A DNA stretch of 64,000 nucleotides. Origin: Escherichia coli (GTDB lineage: Bacteria; Pseudomonadota; Gammaproteobacteria; Enterobacterales; Enterobacteriaceae). The stretch lies in assembly GCF_017348835.2 (NCBI RefSeq), contig NZ_CP071375.1. One strand, written 5' to 3'. This document shows positions 9,727 to 55,976 of this stretch, piece by piece. The translations under genes were made by a program, and so were the position numbers. Under the pieces are notes generated by a model that was not told where the DNA came from, ran no database searches, and was given only the letters and a program-made list of their open reading frames with translations. Numbering within the stretch: position 1 is the first letter of the stretch; each line of letters begins with the position of its first letter.

Positions 9727-9802
<76 letters not shown>

Positions 9803-9841
9803 ACGATGCGTTTACGTACCAAATTTGCTGGGTGCAAAATT

Positions 9842-9917
<76 letters not shown>

Positions 9918-12615: not shown

Positions 12616-12691
12616 GGGTGATTAGCTCAGCTGGGAGAGCACCTCCCTTACAAGGAGGGGGTCGGCGGTTCGATCCCGTCATCACCCACCA
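12616..12691 (+). tRNA. valU: tRNA-Val (UAC)
   Basis: GGGTGATTAGCTCAGCTGGGAGAGCACCTCCCTTACAAGGAGGGGGTCGGCGGTTCGATCCCGTCATCACCCACCA. Confidence 0.95.
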
Positions 12692-12735
12692 ACTACTTTA
12701 TGTAGTCTCCGCCGTGTAGCAAGAAATTGAGAAGT

Positions 12736-12811
12736 GGGTGATTAGCTCAGCTGGGAGAGCACCTCCCTTACAAGGAGGGGGTCGGCGGTTCGATCCCGTC
12801 ATCACCCACCA
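12736..12811 (+). tRNA. valX: tRNA-Val (UAC)
   Basis: Identical 76-nt copy. Confidence 0.95.
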
Positions 12812-12857
12812 CTTTCTCACCAGCTAAATTTCTTGTAAAAATGTGAAGTACCGAAGT

Positions 12858-12933
12858 GGGTGATTAGCTCAGCTGGGAGAGCACCTCCCTTACAAGGAGG
12901 GGGTCGGCGGTTCGATCCCGTCATCACCCACCA
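12858..12933 (+). tRNA. valY: tRNA-Val (UAC)
   Basis: Identical 76-nt copy. Confidence 0.95.
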
Positions 12934-12937
12934 CTTC

Positions 12938-13013
12938 GGGTCGTTAGCTCAGTTGGTAGAGCAGTTGACTTTTAATCAATTGGTCGCAGGTTCGAATCCT
13001 GCACGACCCACCA
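12938..13013 (+). tRNA. lysV: tRNA-Lys (UUU)
   Basis: GGGTCGTTAGCTCAGTTGGTAGAGCAGTTGACTTTTAATCAATTGGTCGCAGGTTCGAATCCTGCACGACCCACCA. Confidence 0.95.
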
Positions 13014-43577: not shown

Positions 43578-44939
43578 TCAGAAGAACAGTGACGGATCGC
43601 CCGCCCGTTTGGTCAGGCGACCGTTTGCCATAATGCCCATGCTTTCCAGCCAGCGTTCAAACTCCGGTGACGGGCGCAGGTTGAGTAACTGACGCACAGT
43701 GGCGGTATCGTGGAATGCGGTGGTCTGGTAATTGAGCATGATGTCATCACCCAGCGGCATCCCCATGATGTAGTTGCAGCCTGCGGTGGCGAGCAGGATC
43801 ATCAGGTTTTCGTTGAGGTTCTGGTCAGCGTCAGCGTGGTTGGTGTAACAGCAGTCACAGCCCATAGAGATGCCGCTCAGCTTGCCCATAAAGTGATCTT
43901 CTAAGCCCGCACGAATAATCTGGCGGTCATTGTAGAGATACTCCGGCCCAATAAAGCCGACCACGGTGTTGACGATAAACGGATCGTAATGACGCGCCAG
44001 CCCGTAGTTACGCGCTTCCATGGTCACCTGGTCTGCGCCGTAGTTGGCACCCGCCGACAGCGCCGAACCTTGCCCGGTTTCGAAGTAGAGGCAGTTTTCC
44101 CCGGCGATACGGTTGAACTCTGCACCCACTGCGCGCGCTTCGTCGAGCATCGCCAGTTCCACGCCAAACTCTTTCAGCCCTTTTTCACTGCCACAGATAC
44201 TCTGGAAAATCAGCCCGCCTGGTGCGCCACGACGAATCGCTTCGATCTGGGTGGTGACGTGCGCCAGTACGCAGCCCTGAGTTGGGATGTTGAATTTGTC
44301 GATCACGCCATAGATGGTGTCCAGCACGCGGCTTAAGTTTTCCACGTCGTCAGTTACCGGGTTGACGCCGATCACCGCATCGCCCACCCCGAAGGAAAGC
44401 CCTTCGTAGATTTGCGCGGCGATACTTTGCACGTCGTCACGGGTGTCATTTGGCTGCAAACGGGCGCTAAAGGTGCCCGGAATACCGATGGTGGTATTGG
44501 CCTTTTTGATTACCGGCATTTTCTTCGCGCCGTAGATCAGGTCCGCGTTGGAGCAAATCTTCGCTACCGCCGCGACCACTTCCGAGGTCAGCCCTTTGCG
44601 GGTAAAGGCAATGTCGTCCACGCTGGTTTCATCGCTCAGCACATACTCACGCAGTTCGCTGATGCTCCAGTTTTTAATCTGGTTGTAGGCCGTTTCGTTA
44701 ACATCGTCCTGAATCAGCCGCGTCACGCAGTCATCTTCATAGGCAATCACCGGATTATTGCGGATGTCCGCTACGGTCATTTCCGACAACACCTGCTTTG
44801 CTGCCACGCGCTCCTGTGAGCTTGCCGCTGCAACGCCCGCCAGCACATCCCCCGAACGCAGTTCGTTGGCTTTAGCCAGCACCTCTTTTACATCCTTAAA
44901 CTGATATACATTGCCGAACAATGTGGTCTTTAGTTTCAT
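43578..44939 (-). CDS. eutB: ethanolamine ammonia-lyase large subunit
   Basis: ORF trimmed to MKLKTTLFGNVYQFKDVKEV... start (ATG complement 44937-44939), 453 aa. Confidence 0.93.
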   Translation of the reverse strand: MKLKTTLFGNVYQFKDVKEVLAKANELRSGDVLAGVAAASSQERVAAKQVLSEMTVADIRNNPVIAYEDDCVTRLIQDDVNETAYNQIKNWSISELREYVLSDETSVDDIAFTRKGLTSEVVAAVAKICSNADLIYGAKKMPVIKKANTTIGIPGTFSARLQPNDTRDDVQSIAAQIYEGLSFGVGDAVIGVNPVTDDVENLSRVLDTIYGVIDKFNIPTQGCVLAHVTTQIEAIRRGAPGGLIFQSICGSEKGLKEFGVELAMLDEARAVGAEFNRIAGENCLYFETGQGSALSAGANYGADQVTMEARNYGLARHYDPFIVNTVVGFIGPEYLYNDRQIIRAGLEDHFMGKLSGISMGCDCCYTNHADADQNLNENLMILLATAGCNYIMGMPLGDDIMLNYQTTAFHDTATVRQLLNLRPSPEFERWLESMGIMANGRLTKRAGDPSLFF

Positions 44940-45127
44940 AAGTCGTTCCCTCAGGAAGAAGTGATGAGTGACATTTTTCACAGCCTTCAAACAATTCTAT
45001 TTCATCGTTAACCCTTGTCCTGTAAGGTAATTACCTTAGTACGCCCGCTATTCATCCTGCCGAACGCAACCGAACGCGCCGGATACATGAGCGGGGTTAT
45101 CGAGTCGTTAGATCGAGGTATCCGGTT

Positions 45128-46333
45128 TTGAGCAAGACACCACTGACAGCAAAGGCCATAGAGGCCGCACAACCGCAGGACAAGCCCTATAAACTCACCG
45201 ATTCACAGACACCTGGCCTGTTTTTGCTGGTCCATCCCAACGGCAGCAAATACTGGCGATTCCGGTATTGGATAGACAAGAAGGAGCGGTTACAGGCTAT
45301 TGGGGTGTATCCGCTGATTAGCCTCAAGGAAGCCCGCAAACGCGCCACAGAGAGCCGTTTACTGATAGCCCAGGGAATTGACCCAATGGATTTGGCACGC
45401 AAGGAGAAAGCCATTGATGCTCTTAATGCTATCGCCAGTTTTAAAGCTGTAGCAGAAGACTGGATGGCTACCAAGGTGAGCGGATGGAGTGAGAGCTATA
45501 CAAAGCAGGTCAGATCGGCACTAGAGAAAGATGTTTACCCCGTGCTAGGTAAGCGGTCGATAGTGGATATAACGGCCCGTGACGTGCTGGCGTTACTACA
45601 GAAAAAGGAGCGCACCGCACCGGAACAAGCCAGGAAATTACGCCAGCGTATCGGGGAGATCTTCAAATTTGCCGTTATCACTGAACTGGTTAACCGGAAT
45701 CCGGTTGCAGATCTGGATACGGCACTGAAAGCCAGACGCCCAGGCCATAACGCGTGGATACCGATTAATGAAATTCCGGCCTTCTACAAAGCCCTTGAGA
45801 GAGCTGGGAGCGTTCAGATTCAGACGGCAATACTTTTGCTCATCCTCACAGCTTTGAGGACGGCAGAATTGCGCCTGATGCGCTGGGAATGGGTAGATCT
45901 GCAATCGGCAACAATCACATTGCCCGCTGAAGTCATGAAGGCCCGCCGACCGCATGTTGTCCCGCTATCCCGGCAGGCGGTCGAGCTATTACAGGACCAG
46001 TTTACCCGCAGCGGATACAGTGCTTTCGTCTTTCCTGGCCGATTCATGGACAAGCCACTTTCAGCCAGTGCCATCCTTAAAGCCCTGGAGCGTATCGGAT
46101 ACAAGTCGATAGCCACAGGCCACGGCTGGCGGACCACCTTTTCAACGGCGCTTAATGAGTCCGGCAGGTACTCACCAGACTGGATCGAAATCCAACTGGC
46201 CCACGTTCCGAAAGGCGTGCGCGGTGTTTATAACCAGGCGGCCTACCTGAAGCAACGACGGGCCATGATGCAGGATTATAGCGACTGTATTGATTCAATA
46301 CTGGCTGGTGACGGTAATCCACTTGAACCGTGA
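45128..46333 (+). CDS. intZ: P4-type tyrosine integrase
   Basis: 401-aa ORF (TTG start in the ORF track); N-terminal arm-binding-type domain (DKPYKLTDSQTPGLFLLVHPNGSKYWRFRYW), catalytic region with HGWR and terminal ...GVYNQAAYLKQRRAMMQ tyrosine motif. The symbol is assigned by position only. Confidence 0.85.
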   Translation: MSKTPLTAKAIEAAQPQDKPYKLTDSQTPGLFLLVHPNGSKYWRFRYWIDKKERLQAIGVYPLISLKEARKRATESRLLIAQGIDPMDLARKEKAIDALNAIASFKAVAEDWMATKVSGWSESYTKQVRSALEKDVYPVLGKRSIVDITARDVLALLQKKERTAPEQARKLRQRIGEIFKFAVITELVNRNPVADLDTALKARRPGHNAWIPINEIPAFYKALERAGSVQIQTAILLLILTALRTAELRLMRWEWVDLQSATITLPAEVMKARRPHVVPLSRQAVELLQDQFTRSGYSAFVFPGRFMDKPLSASAILKALERIGYKSIATGHGWRTTFSTALNESGRYSPDWIEIQLAHVPKGVRGVYNQAAYLKQRRAMMQDYSDCIDSILAGDGNPLEP

Positions 46334-46884
46334 ACTATAAGGCCGGGTTTATACTCAATATCGACGGTTGAAGCGCTCAAAAAACAACCGTGACAACCGT
46401 CACAAATATGCAATGTCAATGATCTGAATCAATAAATTGCCAATTCTTCGTTTCCACTTTCGAATGAAAGCAAGATGCAGAAAAATAAATCACCATGAAA
46501 TCATGTACTTATTAATTTTGACCAAATGGTCCAAAATATCCTCGGTGAATCCATGCTTGCCACAGCCAGATGATTAATATTTAACCCATGACTTTCGAAT
46601 GAAAGTAAATTGATAAAAAAGTCAGTGTACACTAACTAAATCGAATATTTTTTGCGCTATGTTTGAATGATAATTGAGCAAAACTTTCGCAAGGTGTGAC
46701 GATGTGAGTAATTAATTTTAACTCTACAATAAACCCATCCCGACAGGGATGGTACCTGGAGCGGAGCGAGAGGGACCATCCCCCTGTTTTTAGTCTTTTG
46801 AAGTTAGTTTTTTAAGGGATTAAATAATTTTGCCTCAAATGAGACCACACCATACAAGGCCAAAAACAATCAGTATTGCGTGGA

Positions 46885-47400
46885 TCAGGCTGGTTTTTTA
46901 ACTATATACCCCGTATGCCAAGGATTCTGATCGCGCGGCATCGGGTCCGCCTTGATAGACTCATAAAACTTATCAGCCATCTCAGCCACAAACTGTACAG
47001 AGGATTCGAACTCAGCGTTTTTGTGTGCGGGAGGAAACCAGAAGTCTAACACGCCAGCATTTCTATTTTTACATACAGCGTATATAAGATAAGCATCAGA
47101 TGTAGGGGTAACTTTTTCGAAACCACCGGGACCATAACGACCAGTAGACCAGTCATCCCAGCATTGTTCTGTCCCGCTATAGCCGTACTGATTGGTATAA
47201 AGACCAATATTTACATGGACTTTACGTAAGTGGATAGGATATACACACGGGGGTTTATGGAAAAGAGTATCCTTTCCAAAATCAGGATGATGTCCATATC
47301 TCCAATGATAAATAAACGAATCCTTAAAGCTCTTTAATTCATCGTTTGTTTTAAACTTATTATCACTGTAGACCTTACCAATAAATTCATTCTGGACCAT
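46885..47400 (-). CDS. YafO-like toxin-family protein (putative toxin of a two-gene module)
   Basis: 171-aa ORF from ATG (complement 47398-47400); motifs DFGKDTLF, PIHLRKVHVNIG, SDAYLIYAVCK, FWFPPAHKNAE and VAEMADKF line up with YafO motifs as I recall them (FGRDALY, HIHL, EAHLVYCQG, KPEPHKLA, MAEAF). Confidence 0.5.
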   Translation of the reverse strand: MVQNEFIGKVYSDNKFKTNDELKSFKDSFIYHWRYGHHPDFGKDTLFHKPPCVYPIHLRKVHVNIGLYTNQYGYSGTEQCWDDWSTGRYGPGGFEKVTPTSDAYLIYAVCKNRNAGVLDFWFPPAHKNAEFESSVQFVAEMADKFYESIKADPMPRDQNPWHTGYIVKKPA

Positions 47401-47734
47401 CAAAGCTTACACTCTTTAAGCGTTCTTCTCGTGAATCGAATAAATCTTTTGATAAATCACACGCTTGTGTGAACGTCATTTTTTTTACTCGTGGTACAGC
47501 CATAGGCGAGGCCGCATTCATCACTTTGTTTTCTTCGTGATCGAGAGTAGCAGTGTAGCGAAACATGACACTTTTACCGCGCACCAACTGGTATCCTAGT
47601 CGATACGCTAACGCGTCAAGATGCGTCAGACGATTTGTTTTACGCAAGCCAGTCATAGCTTTTGGCTTACGAGTGCGCACAGAAAGGGATTTCCCTTCTC
47701 GCTTAGTCGCAAACAAAGTAACTATTTTTGACAT
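47387..47734 (-). CDS. small basic protein, putative partner/antitoxin of the downstream toxin-like gene
   Basis: 115-aa ORF from ATG (complement 47732-47734) with GGAGAT RBS; stop lies 10 bp before the downstream gene start; Lys/Arg-rich N-terminus. Confidence 0.45.
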   Translation of the reverse strand: MSKIVTLFATKREGKSLSVRTRKPKAMTGLRKTNRLTHLDALAYRLGYQLVRGKSVMFRYTATLDHEENKVMNAASPMAVPRVKKMTFTQACDLSKDLFDSREERLKSVSFDGPE

Positions 47735-48706
47735 GGTATCTCCTGACATCAATCTGCTAAGGCCATTGTGCCTTGTTTGAATAGTAAACTATTCGCCCAA
47801 TCTACACCAGTGATTTTCTTGACGCCAATAGTAAAGGCAGCATTGCCCACCACAGGCAGACAATGAGACTTCAGATAGCGCACCTTCTATCGCGCACGCG
47901 CTCAATAAAACCAACGACACCGCCATCCTGCCTGACCGATGTTTTTAACCAGCGTATACAGAGAAACAGACAACAGCATGAAATCAGCGTATATCCAGGT
48001 GCAGACGGCACTATCACACAACGCACAGCAGGCTGAGGTGAACACTCAAGCAACTTTATCCCCGCCACCGACCACCGCAAACTATCATGACCGTGCCAAA
48101 TTCAAAAGGAATGGCCCATATAACGCGATGAACACACATAAGCGCTACACTTGCTTACCTGAAAACTTCACAGCGTCACAGCGCGTTTTAGACACGTTAA
48201 AATTAATGAGATTTCATTAAATTTTCACCAGACACCGGAACAAGCCTATAAATCAAAAATGAATTACCGACATGCGCCGCTGGCGTTCACAGGAAGAATC
48301 AATAACTTAGGCCAATGGCGAAAGTTAAACAAAATCAAGAACTTGCAGAAATGCAGGATGAAGCAGCCGATGTGCCCCGTTGGATTTTACCAGAAGAATC
48401 AACAAGTTAGACTCGGTGATTTCACCGACTCCTGCCGGACTACTGACCAGATCGAACCATTCCCCAAATTTGGGGAGAGCAAACCACACGCAGATCCTGC
48501 CAGGCTATTTCATCCCACCGCATCACGTATTTGCACACTTCCCCGCTGACGTGCTCATTTTGATAACGAGTTACCCGCTAGCCCTTGCCACATCACCATT
48601 TGTCGCGCTTTGACTAAATTAGCGACGTGCCTGTTATAGCGATACGCTAGTTATGCAGAAAGCGCGACATATCCAGCAACCATGCACCCTACAGAGGAAT
48701 TGAATC

Positions 48707-49159
48707 ATGCGAGACATAGACTGGTCAGCTATCCCTTTCGATGATTTACCGCCCTGGCATCTGGACTGGGACGTAGACCAACGCGAAAACGCGACATATC
48801 CAGCAACCACCAGCATTACAGCGATGCGCCCCGTAAAGCCTAAGAAATACCAGGCAACCGACCTGATAGCTCACCTCAAAGCTATTGGCGGCGTATTTAC
48901 CGGAAGCAAAGACACGCTTGCACATGAAGTATGGCCCCGGAAGACGCCAGCGGGTCGAACCGTTTTACGCTTACTGACCGAACTGTCAGACAACGGCGAC
49001 GCTGTAGTGATTAACCGTGGTCGTTGTGGCGTGGAAGTTATTCTGACGCCGAAGAACAGGGCACAGACGCCTGAATTAAGCGCACCCAAGCAAATGCATA
49101 GCCAAAAATTAAGTCCAGCAGAACGCGTTATATCGCTTTTAAATGGCATCGGATTTTAA
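48707..49159 (+). CDS. hypothetical island protein
   Basis: 150-aa ORF with GAGGA RBS 8 nt upstream of ATG; no recognisable family. Confidence 0.5.
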   Translation: MRDIDWSAIPFDDLPPWHLDWDVDQRENATYPATTSITAMRPVKPKKYQATDLIAHLKAIGGVFTGSKDTLAHEVWPRKTPAGRTVLRLLTELSDNGDAVVINRGRCGVEVILTPKNRAQTPELSAPKQMHSQKLSPAERVISLLNGIGF

Positions 49160-49185
49160 TTAATTTTGATGTGGTAATTGCAGGC

Positions 49186-49212
49186 AAAAAAATCCCGCCG
49201 GAGAAAGCGGGG
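49186..49212 (-). terminator. rho-independent terminator oriented for minus-strand transcripts
   Basis: Minus strand reads CCCCGCtttctccgGCGGGattttttt (on plus strand the A-run precedes the hairpin). Confidence 0.55.
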
Positions 49213-49446
49213 AAGTGAAATCAATCGTTGTAGTTATAGATCACATTTTGGAGTTGAGGATGGCTAATCCTCGCTAATATTATCGCGCCGTTATGTGATG
49301 GGCGCAATTATTTCTTACTAATTAAAAGTTTTGTAAATATTACAGAATATCCCTTTTCACTATATGGTAAAAGATGTGAAACAGGGACATGAGGAATATA
49401 ATATTAAGTATCAACAGTAATGTTGGTCTTTAATTTCATTCAGGGC

Positions 49447-49489
49447 GCGGTGAGGGTTTTCTCCATATTTTTCCTCACCGCTACTTTTT
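49447..49489 (+). promoter_or_regulatory. terminator/attenuator-like hairpin in the alpA leader
   Basis: GCGGTGAGG-17 nt loop-CCTCACCGC followed by tacttttt, immediately upstream of the alpA RBS. Confidence 0.45.
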
Positions 49490-49501
49490 CGAGGTGAGAA
49501 C

Positions 49502-49693
49502 ATGAATGATAGCGAATTAATGACGGTGAACGAGGTAGCCGCTTTATTCGGCGTTACCCGTCGGACAATATTCCGGTGGATGAACAAGATTAAAGGCTGG
49601 CCCGTCCCGGTCAGTCCGATTGGCTCAAGAATTAAGTTTATCCGATCTGAGATTTTGGAATTCTATAAAAACAAAGGCGCTCGCCACCAATGA
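49502..49693 (+). CDS. alpA: AlpA-family phage/island transcriptional regulator (excision control)
   Basis: 63-aa ORF MTVNEVAALFGVTRRTIFRWMNKIKGWPVPVSPIGSRIKFIRSEILEF: typical AlpA HTH signature; RBS GAGGTGAG. Confidence 0.8.
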   Translation: MNDSELMTVNEVAALFGVTRRTIFRWMNKIKGWPVPVSPIGSRIKFIRSEILEFYKNKGARHQ

Positions 49694-49832
49694 AAACAGC
49701 TACTGAGATTATCAAATAACCTATTGATTTAAAAAGCTAGCTACCGCAATTTCTGAAGGAATAGGCAGCATGAAAATCAAAGCAAACACAATTAAAGAAA
49801 TAACATCAATCAAAGTAAAAGGAGCAGATGCC

Positions 49833-50096
49833 ATGCATTCATTAGATAGTTATTTTCAGCGCACGACAGCCCCTAAATCAGCCGCCCAGGAACGCCGTGA
49901 GGAATTCCAGGAAAAAGTGATGCGTTCTGCTGATTATATTGCGGACAAGTTCGCGGAAACGGTTCGGCCACTTGTTGATGAAGTAGCTGATAAACTTCAG
50001 TCTGAAATGCCGGAAGACATGGAAGGCACTGCAAAGGCGCGACTCCTTTTTGAATTAAGTCGTCGTTTCGGCGTGTCAATAAGCACTTTTAAATAA
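49833..50096 (+). CDS. hypothetical small acidic protein
   Basis: 87-aa ORF from ATG 49833 with AAAGGAG RBS 8 nt upstream. Confidence 0.5.
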   Translation: MHSLDSYFQRTTAPKSAAQERREEFQEKVMRSADYIADKFAETVRPLVDEVADKLQSEMPEDMEGTAKARLLFELSRRFGVSISTFK

Positions 50097-50113
50097 TCGG
50101 AGGAGGAAAGACA

Positions 50114-50656
50114 ATGGACGCATTTGATGTACTGACAAACAAAGGCGATGAACTGGTAGCACAGCGTGATAAAACCGCCAACGAAGGGGAACGCGCACTG
50201 TTAAATAAGCAGATTAAAGCGATCCGTATGGCCCAGTTTAAATTAATCAGCAATGAAGTTATCGAAAAAATTAAACCGCAGATCCCACAAATCGTTGCTG
50301 ACGCTATTAAAGCCGCCGGACTGGAGAAACGCATTGCCGGGCTGAAAACGAACGCAGAGAAAATGGAGATGCACAAACAGAGCGGTGCTCCGACTCCGGA
50401 TGAGTACTTCTCACCGGATGCTGAGTTTATGGCGCAGGTTGAGGAACGTCTGGGTAGCTGTCTCACCGAGGAACAGTGTCGCTATTTTGATGGAGTGGAT
50501 AGTTCGGCAGGTATTGACCTGAACTCGTATTTCGGTCGTGAAATTGAGCATTTTGATGCCGCCCCGTCTATGCCGGAGCCAGAACCAGAAATGGCCGCCG
50601 ATCCTGAAGCTGAGCAACGGAAACGCGTATTCAATGCGATAGGGATTCGGTACTGA
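50114..50656 (+). CDS. hypothetical protein (phage-associated)
   Basis: 180-aa ORF with strong GGAGGAGG RBS; acidic C-terminus. Confidence 0.55.
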   Translation: MDAFDVLTNKGDELVAQRDKTANEGERALLNKQIKAIRMAQFKLISNEVIEKIKPQIPQIVADAIKAAGLEKRIAGLKTNAEKMEMHKQSGAPTPDEYFSPDAEFMAQVEERLGSCLTEEQCRYFDGVDSSAGIDLNSYFGREIEHFDAAPSMPEPEPEMAADPEAEQRKRVFNAIGIRY

Positions 50657-50664
50657 TCGGATAA

Positions 50665-50688
50665 AAGAAAGCCGGGAATTACCCCGGC
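50665..50688 (-). terminator. hairpin terminator, T-tract on the minus strand
   Basis: GCCGGGaattacCCCGGC preceded on plus strand by ataaaagaaa (minus strand: hairpin then tttcttttat). Confidence 0.45.
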
Positions 50689-50707
50689 TGACTTAACAAT
50701 GTGACCA

Positions 50708-51082
50708 ATGAACAAATCGGACAAGACAAACAGGATAAGCAGTCTCGAAACAATGTTCGGGAACTATATTAGCACAAGTCCGGAGAAAATCATCATGTTG
50801 GCACTACGCATCATGCAGGGCATCGCTAAGACCCTCGCAGAACATGTCTTAGACCTGAAACATTCGCCACTGAGCAAACAGGCCATGAAGCGCCAAACGC
50901 TTCGTCTGTGGGCTGAATATTCGCTTGGAACTATCAATAAAATCATCGACATGAAATCGGGGCCGAGCAACCAGAGCGCGGAGGAAATGGAGTTCATCAG
51001 GCGTTTAATTCTCATTCGCAGAGACATTCATAGCCAGTTACACAGCGTGGGAATCGATATTAATGATGGGACGGGCGATTAA
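50708..51082 (+). CDS. hypothetical protein
   Basis: 124-aa ORF; weak RBS. Confidence 0.45.
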   Translation: MNKSDKTNRISSLETMFGNYISTSPEKIIMLALRIMQGIAKTLAEHVLDLKHSPLSKQAMKRQTLRLWAEYSLGTINKIIDMKSGPSNQSAEEMEFIRRLILIRRDIHSQLHSVGIDINDGTGD

Positions 51083-51120
51083 TTTTCGGACAAGTACTAT
51101 GCGCGCGCGAGGAGCTGAAC

Positions 51121-51351
51121 ATGAAGCAAGATATTGCAGACAGGCTGGAGATACTCGAAGGCCAGCGGGCAGAAGCGAAACAACTACGTAAGCAGGCCAG
51201 AAGAGCGCACAGGAACTACGAAGCAGAATCACTGACCGCTTTCATCAACTTCACAAACCGTTGCATCCTGGAGTGTTACAGGGAGGATGCAGAAAACTGG
51301 CTGGATTCATTGCCAGAACAGACTCTGCATGAACTGAACGGCGACCAGTAA
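51121..51351 (+). CDS. hypothetical small protein
   Basis: 76-aa ORF with GAGGAG RBS 6 nt upstream. Confidence 0.5.
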   Translation: MKQDIADRLEILEGQRAEAKQLRKQARRAHRNYEAESLTAFINFTNRCILECYREDAENWLDSLPEQTLHELNGDQ

Positions 51352-51638
51352 ATAAATCCAGTACGTTTCCCGCAGTGCGCATAACGTACATTATGTGAAA
51401 AACGATATGGATATATATCAGTCTGACTTCAATGAAGAAAACGGACTTCCAGCATCAACCACAAAGAAGTATGGCTAATGCAGCTTTATAAGCCATTGAT
51501 TCTATTAAACGATATTTTTTGTGATTGGTTGAAGCAAACCAAAACACGATGCCACTGAAGCGTTAATAAACTGTTTCAATGTGAAATTATCAGAGTAAAG
51601 AACAATTTGGAGGGTCCGCAAACGCGGATAACAATATC

Positions 51639-53819
51639 ATGAGTGGAAATCTCGGGACCATATACTACGAGGTCGATGCCCGCACTGGGAAACTTCTTAT
51701 CGCGCAACAGCAGGCGGAAGAGGCGTTCGATCGCATTGAACGAGGAGCGCGGAAGGCTGATAGCGGCGTCAAAAAGTTAAATACGCAGATGACTAAAACA
51801 TCAGCCGCAGTCAAAACCAACCTTTCCCCGGCAATCCGTAACGCATCATACCAGATCGCAGACCTTGCCACTCAATTGCAGATGGGCGGTAATGCGCTTC
51901 AGGCGTTCGCTGTGCAGGGTGCGCAGTTATTAGCTGGCTTTGGCACGATGGGCGCGGTAGCTGGCGCGGTGCTGGCTATCGCTGGCGCTATGGGTGGAAG
52001 CCTGGCACAAGGCGCTGATAGTGCAGCCGGATCGGTTGAGTATCTGGACAAGGCGATCACCAAACTGAACGAGGTCATAGCTGTAAATGAACAGGGCGTG
52101 ACGGTGATGAGTGATAGTTACGCCAGACTTTCTAAGGTTAACGCTGAAGTAGCGAAACAGATGCGGAACATGGCTGAAATTCAGGCAATTGCAGCACTGC
52201 GTGACCTGAAAGAACAGGCAAGCCAGGCACAGGGGGAAATGTCGTCATTCTGGCGCAGCTTGCAGGGTGGTAAAGCTGACGCAGCAGCAGCAGCACAGGC
52301 ACTTGATGATCTTGGAATCACAACCAACGACTACAAAGAGGCGATAGCCATACTGAACGCCAATCAGCCGGATACACAGGCGCAAATGGCAACGCTAGCT
52401 AAGTCCGTGATGTACATAGGCGAGGAATACAACCTGACAAACCAGCAAGCCTACGAGTTCATCCGAGCACTAAATAGGGCCGCGACAACGAGAACGCCGG
52501 AAGCCATGCAGGAACTATCGGGCTTCATGCAGGTATTGCTACAGGACACCGAAAACGGTAACGAGGCATTCCGTGAACTGGCTATCAAATTCGTTGATGC
52601 ACAAACCAAAGGCGCAATGCTGGAAGACCAACTAAACCGACTGAAAGGCGCTATCAGTGACGCAGCCACAGAAGCCAGAAACGCCAATTTTACCACTATG
52701 CTCAACACCGTCGCCGCACGCCTGGCAGCCATTGAGCAAGGTTGGGAGGCAGGCGTTAGGATGCAGATGAAAGCCCAGGGCTACACTGAAGAGCAGATCG
52801 ATGAATATGTGAACATGGAAACGGCGTACCGTGATGCAAAAGCCGCTTTGGACGAGAAGAATAAGGCCGACCGTGAAGCTATTGCGCTATCCAAACGCCA
52901 GGCCGCAGAAGCAGCCCGCAAGGCAAAACAGGAAGAAGCTGAAGCACAACGCAAGGCCAAACAGTTAGCCGCGCAGAAGGAGCAGGCAGGACGCTTTACG
53001 CAGCAAGTAATGACGGAATACCTGACGACCGTAGATCCGGCAACAGGCAAGGCGTTTAACCCTGCCGCACAAGTAGAAATGCAGGAGCAGCAGAAGAAAG
53101 CGGCGCTGGATAAATACAGACAGTTGGGCGTCCTGGATGAACAGCAGTACCAGAACACGCTAACCGCCATCCAGAAAACCGCGTCAATGCGCCGCCAGCA
53201 AATCATCAAAGACGAGGCCGACACGTTATTCAACAATCAGCAACAGTTGATCGGCACATTTGGCGATTTCTTCGGTGAACTGTCTGGAGTCATAGCAGAC
53301 GGTGCAGGTGAGCAAAACGCGGCATATCAAGCGCTATTTGCTGTGCAGAAGGGTTTTGTATTGGCATCAGCAGCTTTAAGCCTTCAGAAAGCGCTTGCTG
53401 AGGCAAACGCCTTGCCTTTCCCGGCTAATCTTCCGGCCTATGCGCAAGCTATGTCAGCAGGCACGCAGATCATTTCAGCTATTCGTGGAATAGCTTTCGG
53501 TGGCGGACGCTACAACGGCGGCGCGGTTGGTGCTGGCAACCTGTACCGCGTGGGTGAACACGGTAAGCCTGAGATATTCAAGGCGAACAATGGCAGCCAG
53601 TACATGATCCCAGGTGATAACGGTCGCGTGATAAGTAATCGTGACATTGGCGGCGGTGGCGGCGTAACAATCAACAGCCCGATCACCATTAACACTACGA
53701 ATGGCTTCAGTGATGAAGACTCAAGGCGTCTTGAGGAAGCGATGAAGCGCGTAGCTATGGGCGTTTGCAGGCAGGAGTCAACCAGACCGGGAGGAATGTT
53801 AGCCCCGCGCCGTCGTTAA
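51639..53819 (+). CDS. phage tail tape-measure-like protein
   Basis: 726-aa ORF: glycine/alanine-rich hydrophobic segment (LLAGFGTMGAVAGAVLAIAGAMGGSLAQGADSAAG), long A/Q/E/K-rich coiled-coil middle, C-terminal G-rich region with YRVGEHGKPE motif. Confidence 0.7.
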   Translation: MSGNLGTIYYEVDARTGKLLIAQQQAEEAFDRIERGARKADSGVKKLNTQMTKTSAAVKTNLSPAIRNASYQIADLATQLQMGGNALQAFAVQGAQLLAGFGTMGAVAGAVLAIAGAMGGSLAQGADSAAGSVEYLDKAITKLNEVIAVNEQGVTVMSDSYARLSKVNAEVAKQMRNMAEIQAIAALRDLKEQASQAQGEMSSFWRSLQGGKADAAAAAQALDDLGITTNDYKEAIAILNANQPDTQAQMATLAKSVMYIGEEYNLTNQQAYEFIRALNRAATTRTPEAMQELSGFMQVLLQDTENGNEAFRELAIKFVDAQTKGAMLEDQLNRLKGAISDAATEARNANFTTMLNTVAARLAAIEQGWEAGVRMQMKAQGYTEEQIDEYVNMETAYRDAKAALDEKNKADREAIALSKRQAAEAARKAKQEEAEAQRKAKQLAAQKEQAGRFTQQVMTEYLTTVDPATGKAFNPAAQVEMQEQQKKAALDKYRQLGVLDEQQYQNTLTAIQKTASMRRQQIIKDEADTLFNNQQQLIGTFGDFFGELSGVIADGAGEQNAAYQALFAVQKGFVLASAALSLQKALAEANALPFPANLPAYAQAMSAGTQIISAIRGIAFGGGRYNGGAVGAGNLYRVGEHGKPEIFKANNGSQYMIPGDNGRVISNRDIGGGGGVTINSPITINTTNGFSDEDSRRLEEAMKRVAMGVCRQESTRPGGMLAPRRR

Positions 53820-54317
53820 CCAAATCCCACGCCAGGGGGATAGACTGGCGGCCTTTCAATTCCGTTGAAACGACGGAATCAAACACCCCGATTCAGGGTA
53901 TTTAAACGTCGCGTTTCACGACATTTATCTAAGTCATTGATTTATATTGTAACTCATAATTGAGTTGCGCCGACCATCCCGCCACAAACGCTCCTACGCA
54001 AAAATTCCCTCACAATTACCCTGCCAATTTTCCAGATTTCACGTATACGCGCCTATATCCCCGCCACCGGATACACGCCCGCTTATACCGGATACTTTTA
54101 TGCCATCATTATTAAATCCATTAATAATCATCAAACCATAATTAGCACAACTTATAATCGAACAAAAAACACACAACATTGATAATGATTTTTTCTGGTT
54201 ATACTTATCTAAAAAAGTGGTATGGGAAGTAACTTATTGTTTTGTAATTACAAATTTATTGCGTGGTCAGATGAACAGACTTGCGCACCTCCCGAAAAAC
54301 ACGCGAAAATCGAAGTG

Positions 54318-54427
54318 TTCTTTCTTTTTTTGTTTTTTATTTTTTTATTTTCTCTTTTTCTTCTCTTTCCGGTTCTCTTCTTTTTCTGGTTTTGGTTTTT
54401 TCCTTTTTTATTTTTATTCTTTCTTCA
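54318..54427. repeat. polypyrimidine (T/C) low-complexity tract
   Basis: ~110 bp almost exclusively T and C on the plus strand (tctttctttttttgttttttatttttttattttctc...). Confidence 0.9.
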
Positions 54428-54572
54428 GGGTTGTGATCAAACACACCAAAACATTTTCGCCACAAAAGCGTTAATTTCATCCTGCCAGACCATTCACTTT
54501 CACCGGATACACAGCCGGATATAATCCCGCTAACACCCAGCCACCCAGCATCACGCCTGATAACTACCGTAT

Positions 54573-55976
54573 TCAGGAAGGAAATGCGAGTGATTTCACC
54601 GTCACCGGCACAACCGATCCGCCAAAAAGAGGCGTACCAATGTCGATATAGTCCCCCGCGCGGACAATCACTTCGTCAATGACTGCCAACGGGAGTTGTT
54701 GTAGCTGTGGGCGCAACAACATGCCCAGAGCTTTACCAAAGTCCTGCCCGGCCACCACCAGCAGGGGATGCGGATTCGGAAAACGCGCGACGAAATCGAC
54801 CAACGCGTTGATGACCGTCAGTACCGCGGCGTAACGCACAGGCAGCGAGGCGGGAAGCGCCAGCACGTACGCGTCAGTTTTGGGATCAAGATCCAGCTGA
54901 ATCAGCGCCTGTTGCCAGGCACTCACCAGATCCGTTTCATCAATCGGGATCGCCACCGGCAAATTGCGCAGCGGCAGTTGTACGCCCTCCAGCCAGATTG
55001 TGCTGCCAGAGAGCGAAAGGGTATGTGCACCCGCGCCAATCACCGTGGCGCGTACGGTTTGCGCCGGAAACTGCACGTTCATCTCACGCAGGCGCGGATG
55101 GTCATGCAGCGCCGTTGCCAGAAGCGGGCCAATATCGGCAAAACAGAACGGGTCGGCGGGCTGGTGGCGATAACATTCGCCCACGCCGCCAGAAAGCGTA
55201 ATGATTTCGGGCGTAACACCTGCGGGCAGCAAACCGGTTTGCATTAATGCCTGCGCGAGCGGCGAAAGCGTTCCGTCAATCACTTCGACAATCAGCTCTG
55301 CCATCCGCCAGGTAACCTGCACCAGCTGCGCGCCGGTCAGCGAACGGGCGTCGGTGCCTGCGCCGAAGCACTCATCCACAATCATCTGCCCCGGTTTATG
55401 AGCGTAAACCACGCGCCCCTGGCTGTCGGTTTCCAGCAGGCGACCACCGACGTTGAGGCAGGCAGTGCCGCTGATTTTTCCGGCATCGAACAGGGCGTAG
55501 TTCGCGGTGCCACCGCCGATGTCGATATTCAGTACCCGACACAGCCGTTGTTCAGAAAGGGTTTGCGCCCCGGCACCGTGACCGGCGATCACGGATTCGA
55601 GGTGCGGCCCGGCGCTGGCGACGACAAAATCGCCCAGCGACTGAGAGAGCGCCATCACCGCCGGGCGAGCATTGCGGGTTTTCGCGCTTTCACCGGTGAT
55701 GATGATGGCACCAGAATCAACGCTTTCCGGCGCAATGCCCGCAGCCTGATATTGCTCTAAAATCAGCGATTTCAGTTCCGCTTCTTTTAAACCACCCTGT
55801 TTATCGACAGGGGTAAAGAACACCGGGCTTTGCCAGCTAATTTCGCGTTTGATGAATTCGTAGCGCGGCACCTGCGACACCGCCGCACGGTTAACCAGTT
55901 CCAGGTGGGAGAAAATCACCTGGGTGGTGGTGGTGCCGATATCGATACCGACGCTCAGTAGCTGGCGAGTGTTCAC
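54573..55976 (-). CDS. eutA: ethanolamine ammonia-lyase reactivating factor
   Basis: 467-aa ORF ending ...VTVKSLAFPS; operon context. Confidence 0.9.
   Translation of the reverse strand: MNTRQLLSVGIDIGTTTTQVIFSHLELVNRAAVSQVPRYEFIKREISWQSPVFFTPVDKQGGLKEAELKSLILEQYQAAGIAPESVDSGAIIITGESAKTRNARPAVMALSQSLGDFVVASAGPHLESVIAGHGAGAQTLSEQRLCRVLNIDIGGGTANYALFDAGKISGTACLNVGGRLLETDSQGRVVYAHKPGQMIVDECFGAGTDARSLTGAQLVQVTWRMAELIVEVIDGTLSPLAQALMQTGLLPAGVTPEIITLSGGVGECYRHQPADPFCFADIGPLLATALHDHPRLREMNVQFPAQTVRATVIGAGAHTLSLSGSTIWLEGVQLPLRNLPVAIPIDETDLVSAWQQALIQLDLDPKTDAYVLALPASLPVRYAAVLTVINALVDFVARFPNPHPLLVVAGQDFGKALGMLLRPQLQQLPLAVIDEVIVRAGDYIDIGTPLFGGSVVPVTVKSLAFPS

Follow-up and report, generated by a model that had tools for sequence, protein, structure and literature searches.

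An IntZ-type integrative element with a solitary tape measure gene in the Escherichia coli eut operon: a candidate minimalist phage satellite

The stretch of Escherichia coli DNA analyzed here (64,000 nucleotides of contig NZ_CP071375.1; hereafter the window) contains a 9,622 bp island that splits the eut operon between eutB and eutA and that encodes a full-length tail length tape measure protein (TMP). The island is a discrete element of the IntZ family that has integrated site-specifically where K-12 has its cryptic prophage CPZ-55, and its gene set is a different one. Based on comparison of the island with its relatives and with phage genomes, we propose that it is a minimalist phage satellite that would build chimeric tails on mEp021-like helper phages by supplying its own ruler, a reading to which we assign a probability of roughly 0.55. 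The island sequence is already known in databases and is not new: the locus of PE164, from which the RefSeq annotation was taken, is 100% identical to it, an island of at least 99% identity is present in seven complete genomes, and RefSeq annotates nearly all of its products as hypothetical proteins.

The insertion and its tape measure gene

The ends of the insertion were fixed by aligning both ends of the window locus with the empty eut locus of strain F2_81 and with both K-12 junctions. An 8-bp core, TCAGGAAG, is present in a single copy in the empty site and once at each end of the insert, at 44951-44958 (attL) and at 54573-54580 (attR), where it overlaps the eutA stop codon; the 9,622 bp lie between these two cores. 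Both flanking genes are on the minus strand (eutB, 43578-44939; eutA, 54573-55976), and the main open reading frames (ORFs) of the insert run in the opposite direction. The alignment bears out an earlier, sequence-only reading of the window, which had described a split of about 9.6 kb in the eut operon at the site of CPZ-55: its coordinates are right, eutA and eutB are indeed non-adjacent here, and the junctions are the same as in K-12. In 4,965 of 5,423 complete E. coli genomes (about 92%), eutB and eutA lie side by side, as judged by a 1-kb chimeric query (eutB 5' end joined to eutA 3' end). As this query matches in one piece, eutA and eutB must normally lie 11 bp apart, leaving about 8% of genomes occupied at the site, and a survey of CPZ-55 reported both the same 8-bp duplication and the same 8% occupancy (PMC6379469). 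The comparison of GC content with the flanking eut genes that the earlier reading had suggested gave 47.1% for the island vs 56.5% for the flanks. No other compositionally deviant block was found in the rest of the window at 2-kb resolution, which agrees with its view of the island as the sole clear accessory region.

The insert opens with an IntZ-type tyrosine integrase (401 aa, TTG start; 45128-46333, plus strand). Its matches to Arm-DNA-bind_3 (1e-23), Phage_int_M (2e-29) and Phage_integrase (6e-22) in Pfam and to phrog_1 (8e-69) indicate the P4-family (DUF4102-type) architecture that had been called by eye. Compared with the integrases of sister islands, its ratio of nonsynonymous to synonymous substitution rates (dN/dS) is 0.05-0.10. 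The closest integrase among 50,697 phage genomes is 43% identical and does not come from the mEp021 group.

The sole virion-type gene of the island lies at 51639-53819 (plus strand) and encodes the 726-aa TMP. What had been described as a tape-measure-like gene is a genuine TMP homologue, matching phrog_1538 (3e-103, aa 1-455) and phrog_1107 (7e-58, aa 412-725) as well as a solved siphophage TMP in the PDB (9occ_M, 'tail tape measure protein gp18'; 5e-11, aa 29-686). The Pfam TMP_2 match is weak (8e-4), and PF10145 is matched in some homologues. The similarity to TMP families extends over the full length of the protein, which is typical of siphophage rulers. Searches with PHROGs, NCBIfam and Pfam gave no second virion gene and no lysis, terminase or replication gene in the island. 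Unlike TMPs generally, this one stands alone, outside any tail gene cluster, and it is this solo position that makes it distinctive.

The gene is present in 104 complete genomes, and its product has relatives in more than 250 E. coli protein clusters (89-98% identity, all Escherichia) with lengths of 718-729 aa among the matches listed, apart from one exception of 689 aa. Across residues 1-620 of six alleles, dN/dS is 0.03-0.08 (about 0.05) at dS values of 0.06-0.48, the exception being the closest allele pair, which gave 0.17 at a dS of 0.017. The C-terminal stretch of about 105 residues is hypervariable, with 55-84% identity among the same six alleles. At least three C-terminal types were observed across codons 621-726 or so (53499-53816) in TMPs that are otherwise 96-99% identical. 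Taken with the mosaic breakpoints inside the gene, these types suggest recombinational exchange of the tip-proximal domain.

The TMP gene is preceded by a near-invariant leader of about 100 nt (51540-51638, plus strand), which is made up of GGAGG, a hairpin (TCCGC-AAAC-GCGGA), 11 nt and the ATG. This leader is almost unchanged in nine elements despite their differing upstream genes, TMP alleles and platforms. An exact-pattern scan of metagenome contigs found it in 21 contigs, in every one of which (21/21) a TMP, 42-100% identical to that of the window, lies directly downstream. The GGAGG is the sole good Shine-Dalgarno (SD) sequence and sits 27 nt from the AUG with the conserved hairpin between the two. 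The hairpin appears in the minimum free energy fold, and its folding may be needed to bring the SD sequence into range of the AUG; as the stem is invariant, there is no covariation to test.

When compared over its full length, the island TMP reaches at best 36% identity with phage TMPs, none of which is alike along the whole length. Its ends nevertheless resemble those of a single phage group. Against the mEp021 TMP (781 aa), identity is 51% over residues 1-83 and 65% (with 85% similarity) over residues 620-726, while the middle 540 or so residues are unrelated; the C-terminus reaches 72% identity with mEp013. Among the 50,697 phages, the TMP alleles of the MB19 and FDAARGOS_1249 islands also find their best matches in the mEp021 group (mEp010, mEp013, mEp021, mEp044, mEp515, mEp554 and MagusPhagus), which is thus the best phage match for three island alleles. 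In mEp021 itself, the lambda-type tail-tip genes M, L, K and I lie downstream of the TMP. These are full phages of 53-55 kb that show no relationship to the island in TMP middle, leader, integrase or any other gene, and mEp021 in particular lacks the island leader. We therefore propose the mEp021 group as candidate helpers and not as relatives of the island. We also considered whether the island could have arisen by deletion from a known phage, mEp021-like or other, and rejected this, since no similar integrase or backbone gene is present in the 50,697 phage genomes and the leader is unshared.

In the mechanism that we propose, infection by or induction of an mEp021-like helper would lead the helix-turn-helix (HTH) protein of the island to activate the rightward operon and to aid excision by IntZ. 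The island TMP would be translated from the conserved SD-hairpin leader, its C-terminus would dock on the lambda-type tail-tip complex of the helper (M/L/K/I), its N-terminus would meet the tail-completion end, and tails would be assembled around the island ruler. At 1.6 Å per residue (PMC11838301), the difference between 726 and 781 aa predicts a tail about 9 nm shorter. The chimeric tails might then serve transfer of the element, interference with the helper, or both, as in the Vibrio PLEs. Without a terminase or replication gene of its own, the window variant would depend on the helper for packaging.

In an alternative reading, the element, or its TMP module alone, would protect the host population: the TMP ends would act on incoming mEp021-like phages by binding their tail-tip and tail-completion proteins and so divert or spoil tail assembly, making the locus a tail-poisoning defence island that is never packaged and spreads by other means or vertically. 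This would account for TMP termini that are phage-like around a middle that is not, and for the absence of a packaging gene from the window variant, while the hypervariable C-terminus and the swapping of alleles resemble an arms race, and sister islands carry AIPR and HNH genes in their variable slots. Interference with tail assembly is, moreover, an established strategy, as seen for Tab (PMC10884400), Tai (PMC11364771) and the Rta of PLE11. PADLOC, however, matched none of the island proteins except the generic HTH, and a full-length TMP of 718-729 aa, held at a dN/dS of about 0.05 along the ruler, fits a working ruler better than a decoy, for which the ends alone would do. Packaging and transfer are also suggested by the circular forms described below and by the TerS-like (small terminase-like) genes that adjoin the TMP in sister elements. 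We consider the defence explanation unlikely, if worth keeping in view. It is compatible with the satellite reading; PLEs do both.

A wider element family and the position of CPZ-55

The satellite reading draws further support from relatives of the island, namely from AIPR defence cargo, TerS-like genes, integrase-less circular relatives and a swappable TMP slot. Sister islands follow a common order of integrase, variable slot, p150 (in some), HTH gene, small ORFs, optional module, leader, TMP, variable slot and attR, in which the optional module consists either of a TerS-like gene with one further ORF or of p76. The conserved backbone comprises the HTH_17 regulator, four small orphan genes, the leader of about 100 nt and a full-length TMP, and the variable slots hold AIPR, HNH, YffL-like and YffS-like genes. 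At the TMP position we find alleles of 726 aa (window), 790 aa (MB19), 732 aa (FDAARGOS_1249) and 729 aa (CEA106S, in which an HK97-gp10-family gene lies just upstream), and in some sister elements a small-terminase-like gene (Pfam Sf6_terminase) is directly upstream of the TMP. In strain 2018-18.25PC (locus L008, 8555-11062), a gene of the AIPR family (abortive-infection type) and one ORF lie exactly between p76 and the leader, a junction that seems to be a cargo or defence slot. Among species-representative genomes of other genera, only TMPs at 27-61% identity (best segment) were found, without backbone genes nearby.

A related island of strain 873.10 occupies a second chromosomal site, next to ychJ/purU/tyrT, and has a different tyrosine integrase. 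It carries HTH, HNH, p108-like, p180-like and p76-like genes, with IS256 and ISNCY at the TMP position. Damage of another kind is common at eut: the backbone is present in 234 genomes, and in a large subgroup of these an IS1-linked deletion truncates the island after p76 and takes eutA through eutS with it. In NT1N31 (NZ_CP075480.1) and many other genomes, the TMP, the right end of the island and eutA-eutS have given way to a gad-like pseudogene, gadC, murI and IS1, so that the island is joined to maeB.

Such damage by IS1, IS256 or ISNCY in many backbone islands is what would be expected of an ordinary decaying cryptic prophage, in which a former full-size siphophage at eut has been reduced to an integrase, a few early genes and a functionless TMP. 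The site is that of a classical cryptic prophage, CPZ-55, and no head, tail-tube or lysis genes are left. This explanation sits poorly with an intact TMP ORF of constant length that is under strong purifying selection at dS values of up to 0.48. It also has to contend with an architecture of about 10 kb that recurs with other integrases, as circles and with swapped TMP alleles behind an invariant leader, since independent decay would not repeatedly yield the same minimal gene set, and with a backbone that has no homologue, and an integrase that has no similar counterpart, in the 50,697 phage genomes. We regard simple decay as improbable. Judged from these comparisons, the TMP is best described as a selected, conserved core of a wider element family, not as incidental cargo or a relic.

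Relatives with the backbone and without an integrase were found as contigs of 10.1-11.1 kb, five of which have assembler-type terminal overlaps of 30, 77 or 127 nt, and such overlaps suggest circular molecules. Two Logan contigs from independent runs (ERR13033388 and SRR15373010; 10,321 bp each, 30-nt overlaps) are circular permutations of each other at 99.97% identity and encode an HTH_17 protein, small ORFs, a TerS of the Sf6_terminase type, a TMP and a DUF5906 replication protein, with no integrase. An ENA metagenome scaffold (ERZ28565313; 10,293 bp) represents the same circle with the same genes. Three NCBI E. coli drafts contain the same module: GCA_958412445.1 (contig L089; 127-nt overlap) together with a resolvase and HTH_36, GCA_002485715.1 (77-nt overlap) with a resolvase, and GCA_907172595.1 (127-nt overlap), in which integrase, resolvase and HTH_36 were not called. 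Among finished plasmids there are two relatives alone, pRHB34-C15_2 and pRHB04-C06_4, which have backbone genes in common with the island and no TMP.

These circles, with replication-type genes (DUF5906, HTH_36) or a resolvase, and the backbone genes of the two finished plasmids could also be taken to mean that the island is an integrated plasmid-like or mobilisable element that parasitises no phage, its TMP-like protein having been co-opted for a non-virion role, for example in the envelope. Both plasmids are, however, typed as non-mobilisable, and packaging functions, in the form of HNH or terminase-small-like genes, are found on them as well as on the circular contigs. The TMP termini, for their part, match one phage group, and no match suggests another role. 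We find this account very unlikely. Extending the satellite reading to all of these relatives, we tentatively suggest, at somewhat short of even odds, that minimalist satellites of a widespread and so far undescribed family exist in E. coli, integrated at eut via IntZ and at ychJ via another integrase or existing as circular episomes of 10-11 kb. Its members would carry an exchangeable TMP behind an invariant SD-hairpin leader, with ends matched to mEp021-like helpers for the building of chimeric tails, and CPZ-55 would be a TMP-less member.

CPZ-55 is annotated in K-12 as intZ followed by yffL-yffS over 6,790 bp, in agreement with the size of about 6.8 kb and the lack of a tape measure gene given in the sequence-only reading. 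That reading had further suggested a longer or different cargo variant, and blastn indeed gave no end-to-end alignment with CPZ-55. The matches are limited to 44700-46330 (the end of eutB and the integrase gene, 85% nucleotide identity), to a 65-bp stretch at 53989-54053 (plus strand, 92%) and to the last 70 bp or so before eutA (54502 onwards). In K-12, the 65-bp stretch is found between yffP and yffQ, and it appears to mark the place where a K-12 TMP gene would sit. In a direct tblastn search, the integrase, with 91% amino acid identity to IntZ (b2442), was the sole protein common to the two elements. They thus have in common an insertion point right after the eutA stop codon, the TCAGGAAG duplication and an orthologous IntZ. 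They differ in size (6.8 kb vs 9.6 kb), in the TMP and HTH_17 genes that K-12 lacks and in YffL, YffO, YffP, YffQ, YffR and YffS, of which the window island has no homologues; the window island is not CPZ-55 plus extra cargo.

Family clustering through intermediates nevertheless assigns four K-12 proteins to backbone families: YffM joins p95 in family F1, YffO falls among the TerS-like genes, and YffP and YffS group with two genes of sister islands, the ORF that precedes the TMP and the gene at the right end, respectively. Given this clustering, CPZ-55 looks like a TMP-less relative of the same element family and not its prototype. We found no publication that connects satellites or TMPs with CPZ-55 or with the eut site.

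Several observations weigh against the satellite reading. Excision, induction, packaging and transfer are all proposed for an island known from its sequence alone. The window variant shows no terminase-like gene and no recognisable replication gene in PHROGs, NCBIfam or Pfam, and sequence searches of the island gave no homologue of a tail assembly chaperone, whereas PLEs carry one beside the TMP. The terminal TMP identities of 51-65% amount to a family-level resemblance, not to proof of physical compatibility. None of 5,426 complete genomes has the TMP on a plasmid. In IMG/VR, TMPs were found at 27-68% identity (best segment), mostly in contigs of 20-55 kb, with no close relative among them, and its viral contigs gave no match to the leader pattern. 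The lack of a plasmid-borne TMP and of close IMG/VR relatives implies that the element is seldom free or packaged, or that such forms have been undersampled. The block from p108 to p76 is near-identical between islands, so that selection there is not measurable, and the IS1-linked deletion in a large subgroup of backbone islands means that decay does occur.

Other genes and sequence features of the island

The regulator gene (49502-49693, plus strand) encodes a 63-aa protein that had been called AlpA-like. An HTH gene is present as described, matching HTH_17 in Pfam (1.8e-6), phrog_66 'excisionase and transcriptional regulator' (1.7e-9) and, under the cutoff, TIGR01764 'excise' (5e-5), and it therefore belongs with HTH_17/excisionase-type models; Pfam Phage_AlpA gave no match. 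Homologues are found in every family member, circular contigs and small plasmids included, with a dN/dS of 0.07-0.13; like the TMP gene, the HTH and integrase genes are under purifying selection.

A divergent toxin-like pair had also been described. The two-gene cassette on the minus strand is there, while the toxin is a distant YafO-like candidate. The toxin candidate (171 aa; 46885-47400, minus strand) is cargo in the first variable slot and is named 'type II toxin-antitoxin system YafO family toxin' by RefSeq. The Pfam YafO_toxin profile matches it weakly (independent E-value 0.0094, model positions 13-100 of 101), and the profile scores at or below 0.1 in 6 of 10 homologues (best 2e-4), a weak but consistent signal. 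It also matches phrog_1651, of unknown function (9e-43), and has no match in PADLOC or NCBIfam. The partner ORF (115 aa; 47387-47734, minus strand) lies upstream and shares 14 nt with the start of the toxin gene; a strong SD sequence, AGGAG, stands 5 nt ahead of its ATG. It gave no family match in PHROGs, NCBIfam, PADLOC or Pfam, no match in the PDB and no homology to antitoxins of the YafN/DinJ type; from its position alone it is presumed to be the antitoxin. The YafO-like pair is accessory cargo.

Between the pair and the TMP lies a series of small plus-strand ORFs. The earlier reading noted small ORFs with good ribosome-binding sites as well as AT-rich non-coding stretches; both are present, and most of the ORFs have upstream SD-like motifs. 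The orphan p150 (48707-49159), upstream of the regulator, recurs unchanged (100% identity) in Ceylon31 and on the resolvase-bearing circular contig L089, and at 69% identity in KSC9. It is possibly a winged-helix DNA binder; its AlphaFold model was set aside for its low confidence (pLDDT 40), an H-H-H-beta-beta pattern being all it showed. Two copies of a 25-nt direct repeat, GAAAGCGCGACATATCCAGCAACCA (96% identical; 48658-48682 and 48785-48809), bracket the p150 start codon, with an inverted partner at 48598-48611, and a second repeat pair of 44 nt lies at 48267-48410. Both the GAAAGCGCGACATATCCAGCAACCA and the 44-nt repeats may be operator or iteron-like sites.

The backbone orphan p108 (49770-50096, plus strand) has homologues of 46-49% identity on circular contigs. 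Its neighbour p180 (50114-50656, plus strand) has a helical N-terminus and a C-terminus that is first acidic and then basic. It is 51% identical to a 155-aa protein at the same position in type-B islands, and its N-terminal 78 aa are kept in circular contigs and plasmids. Homologues of p180 are restricted to Escherichia/Shigella, save for one partial fragment labelled Salmonella. For p95 (50795-51082, plus strand), we follow the RefSeq start, which has GGAG 9 nt before its ATG; a longer 124-aa version (p124) has no SD sequence upstream. The p95 family, with 14 representatives among 1.84 billion proteins, is the sole small protein that links all family members, K-12 YffM included, and common motifs are seen in the alignment with YffM. 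AlphaFold predicts a three-helix bundle for p95 (pLDDT 91), and its fold matches are generic, extending to thousands of unrelated bundles. The model is thus uninformative and does not count as evidence of a chaperone. The orphan p76 (51121-51351, plus strand), which the synteny map places where sister islands have the TerS-like gene and another ORF, is 97-99% identical in type-A islands.

None of p150, p108, p180, p95 and p76 matched anything in PHROGs, NCBIfam, PADLOC, Pfam or the PDB, the orphans having been joined by GS linkers for the Pfam and PDB searches; matches to Serglycin arose from these linkers and were discarded. A tblastn search of p150, the HTH protein, p108, p180, p124 and p76 against the 50,697 phage genomes gave no match either.

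Immediately 3' of the TMP stop codon, a 97-bp segment (53831-53927, plus strand) has 90.7% matches in many genomes, is also kept in the related ychJ/purU island and has no Rfam match. Towards the right end lies a polypyrimidine tract of 110 nt (54320-54430, plus strand; repeat family D1), which is T/C-rich and G-poor (GC 34%, GC skew -0.30) and of which parts recur in the KSC9 and MB19 islands. The 47-aa Lys/Glu-rich ORF that RefSeq places over it on the minus strand is probably an artefact of the purine run, and a function of the tract as a Rho-loading site or as an integrase/IHF arm region is speculation. The island is free of Rfam matches at E<=1; in the rest of the window, Rfam recognised nothing but ordinary tRNAs, which form clusters at 9727-9917 (two tRNA-Ala GGC) and at 12616-13013 (three tRNA-Val UAC and a tRNA-Lys UUU). 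A simple promoter and terminator scan of the island found fewer promoter-like sites than in shuffled sequence and nothing decisive.

Effects on the host and comparison with known satellites

K-12 BW25113 cannot grow on ethanolamine as a nitrogen source because of the insertion at this site, and growth returns when the insert is removed without a scar (PMC11334477). Since the window island has the same position and orientation, the same polar effect is expected: the opposite-oriented insert should cut eutBCLK off from the eut promoter and so abolish ethanolamine use. Carriers would be unable to use a gut-relevant nutrient, and about 8% of complete E. coli genomes are occupied at the site by something. 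If the satellite reading is right, E. coli would also offer a tractable system for asking why satellites carry TMPs, as the standard strain ATCC 8739 has a sister island and the candidate helper phages of the mEp series grow on K-12. With ends conserved and middles or C-termini swapped, the TMP alleles form a series that would be a natural experiment on the compatibility of TMPs and tails. CPZ-55, one of nine 'cryptic prophages' of K-12, would then be reclassified as a relative of a satellite family.

Of the known satellites, gram-negative PICIs and the PICMIs of Vibrionaceae resemble the island in size (about 6-15 kb), in the tyrosine integrase at one end, in variable accessory slots, in an AlpA/excisionase-type HTH gene that opens a co-oriented operon and in the small-terminase-type genes of sister elements. 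They differ in that the window variant has no primase/replicase and neither Rpp nor TerS, and its HTH protein matches HTH_17 rather than Phage_AlpA. PICIs combine an integrase with a divergently arranged regulator and an AlpA-type activator; of these, the integrase is present in the island, and no repressor was identified. To our knowledge, a TMP as conserved payload has not been described for any PICI or PICMI. The reduced gene content of the window variant, without capsid-remodelling genes, is shared with PICMIs (PMC10803314). The island has no PHROG or Pfam match to the P4-like satellite genes psu, delta, sid, epsilon and alpha primase.

Mycobacterial EPIP satellites (about 11 kb) combine TerS, HTH and TMP genes (bioRxiv 10.64898/2025.12.02.691453). 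In addition, they have genes for capsid, scaffold and adaptor proteins and for a serine integrase; they belong to an unrelated host phylum and show no sequence similarity to the island. TMPs are otherwise unreported in satellites (PMC11838301; bioRxiv 10.64898/2025.12.02.691453).

The closest functional parallel is offered by the V. cholerae PLEs, satellites of ICP1, with which satellite-encoded TMPs were first demonstrated in 2025 (PMC11838301). PLEs encode a TMP, a tail assembly chaperone and a baseplate hub, and their own TMP is selectively built into chimeric, shorter tails (PMC11838301). They are the sole experimentally shown case of a satellite TMP in chimeric tails. PLE and window island differ in sequence, to which no relationship is seen, in the presumed helper (here a temperate siphophage, there a lytic myophage), in the replication and capsid-remodelling genes that PLEs have and the island lacks, and in the chaperone and hub, of which no homologue was found here; PLE tails are known from experiment, while the function of the island is read from its genes. 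What the two have in common is a small integrative element whose TMP is distantly related to, and shorter than, that of its presumed helper (726 vs 781 aa here; 582 vs 677 aa for PLE). To this comparison our analysis adds a TMP that appears to characterise a satellite-like family not described before, of which CPZ-55 would be a relative.

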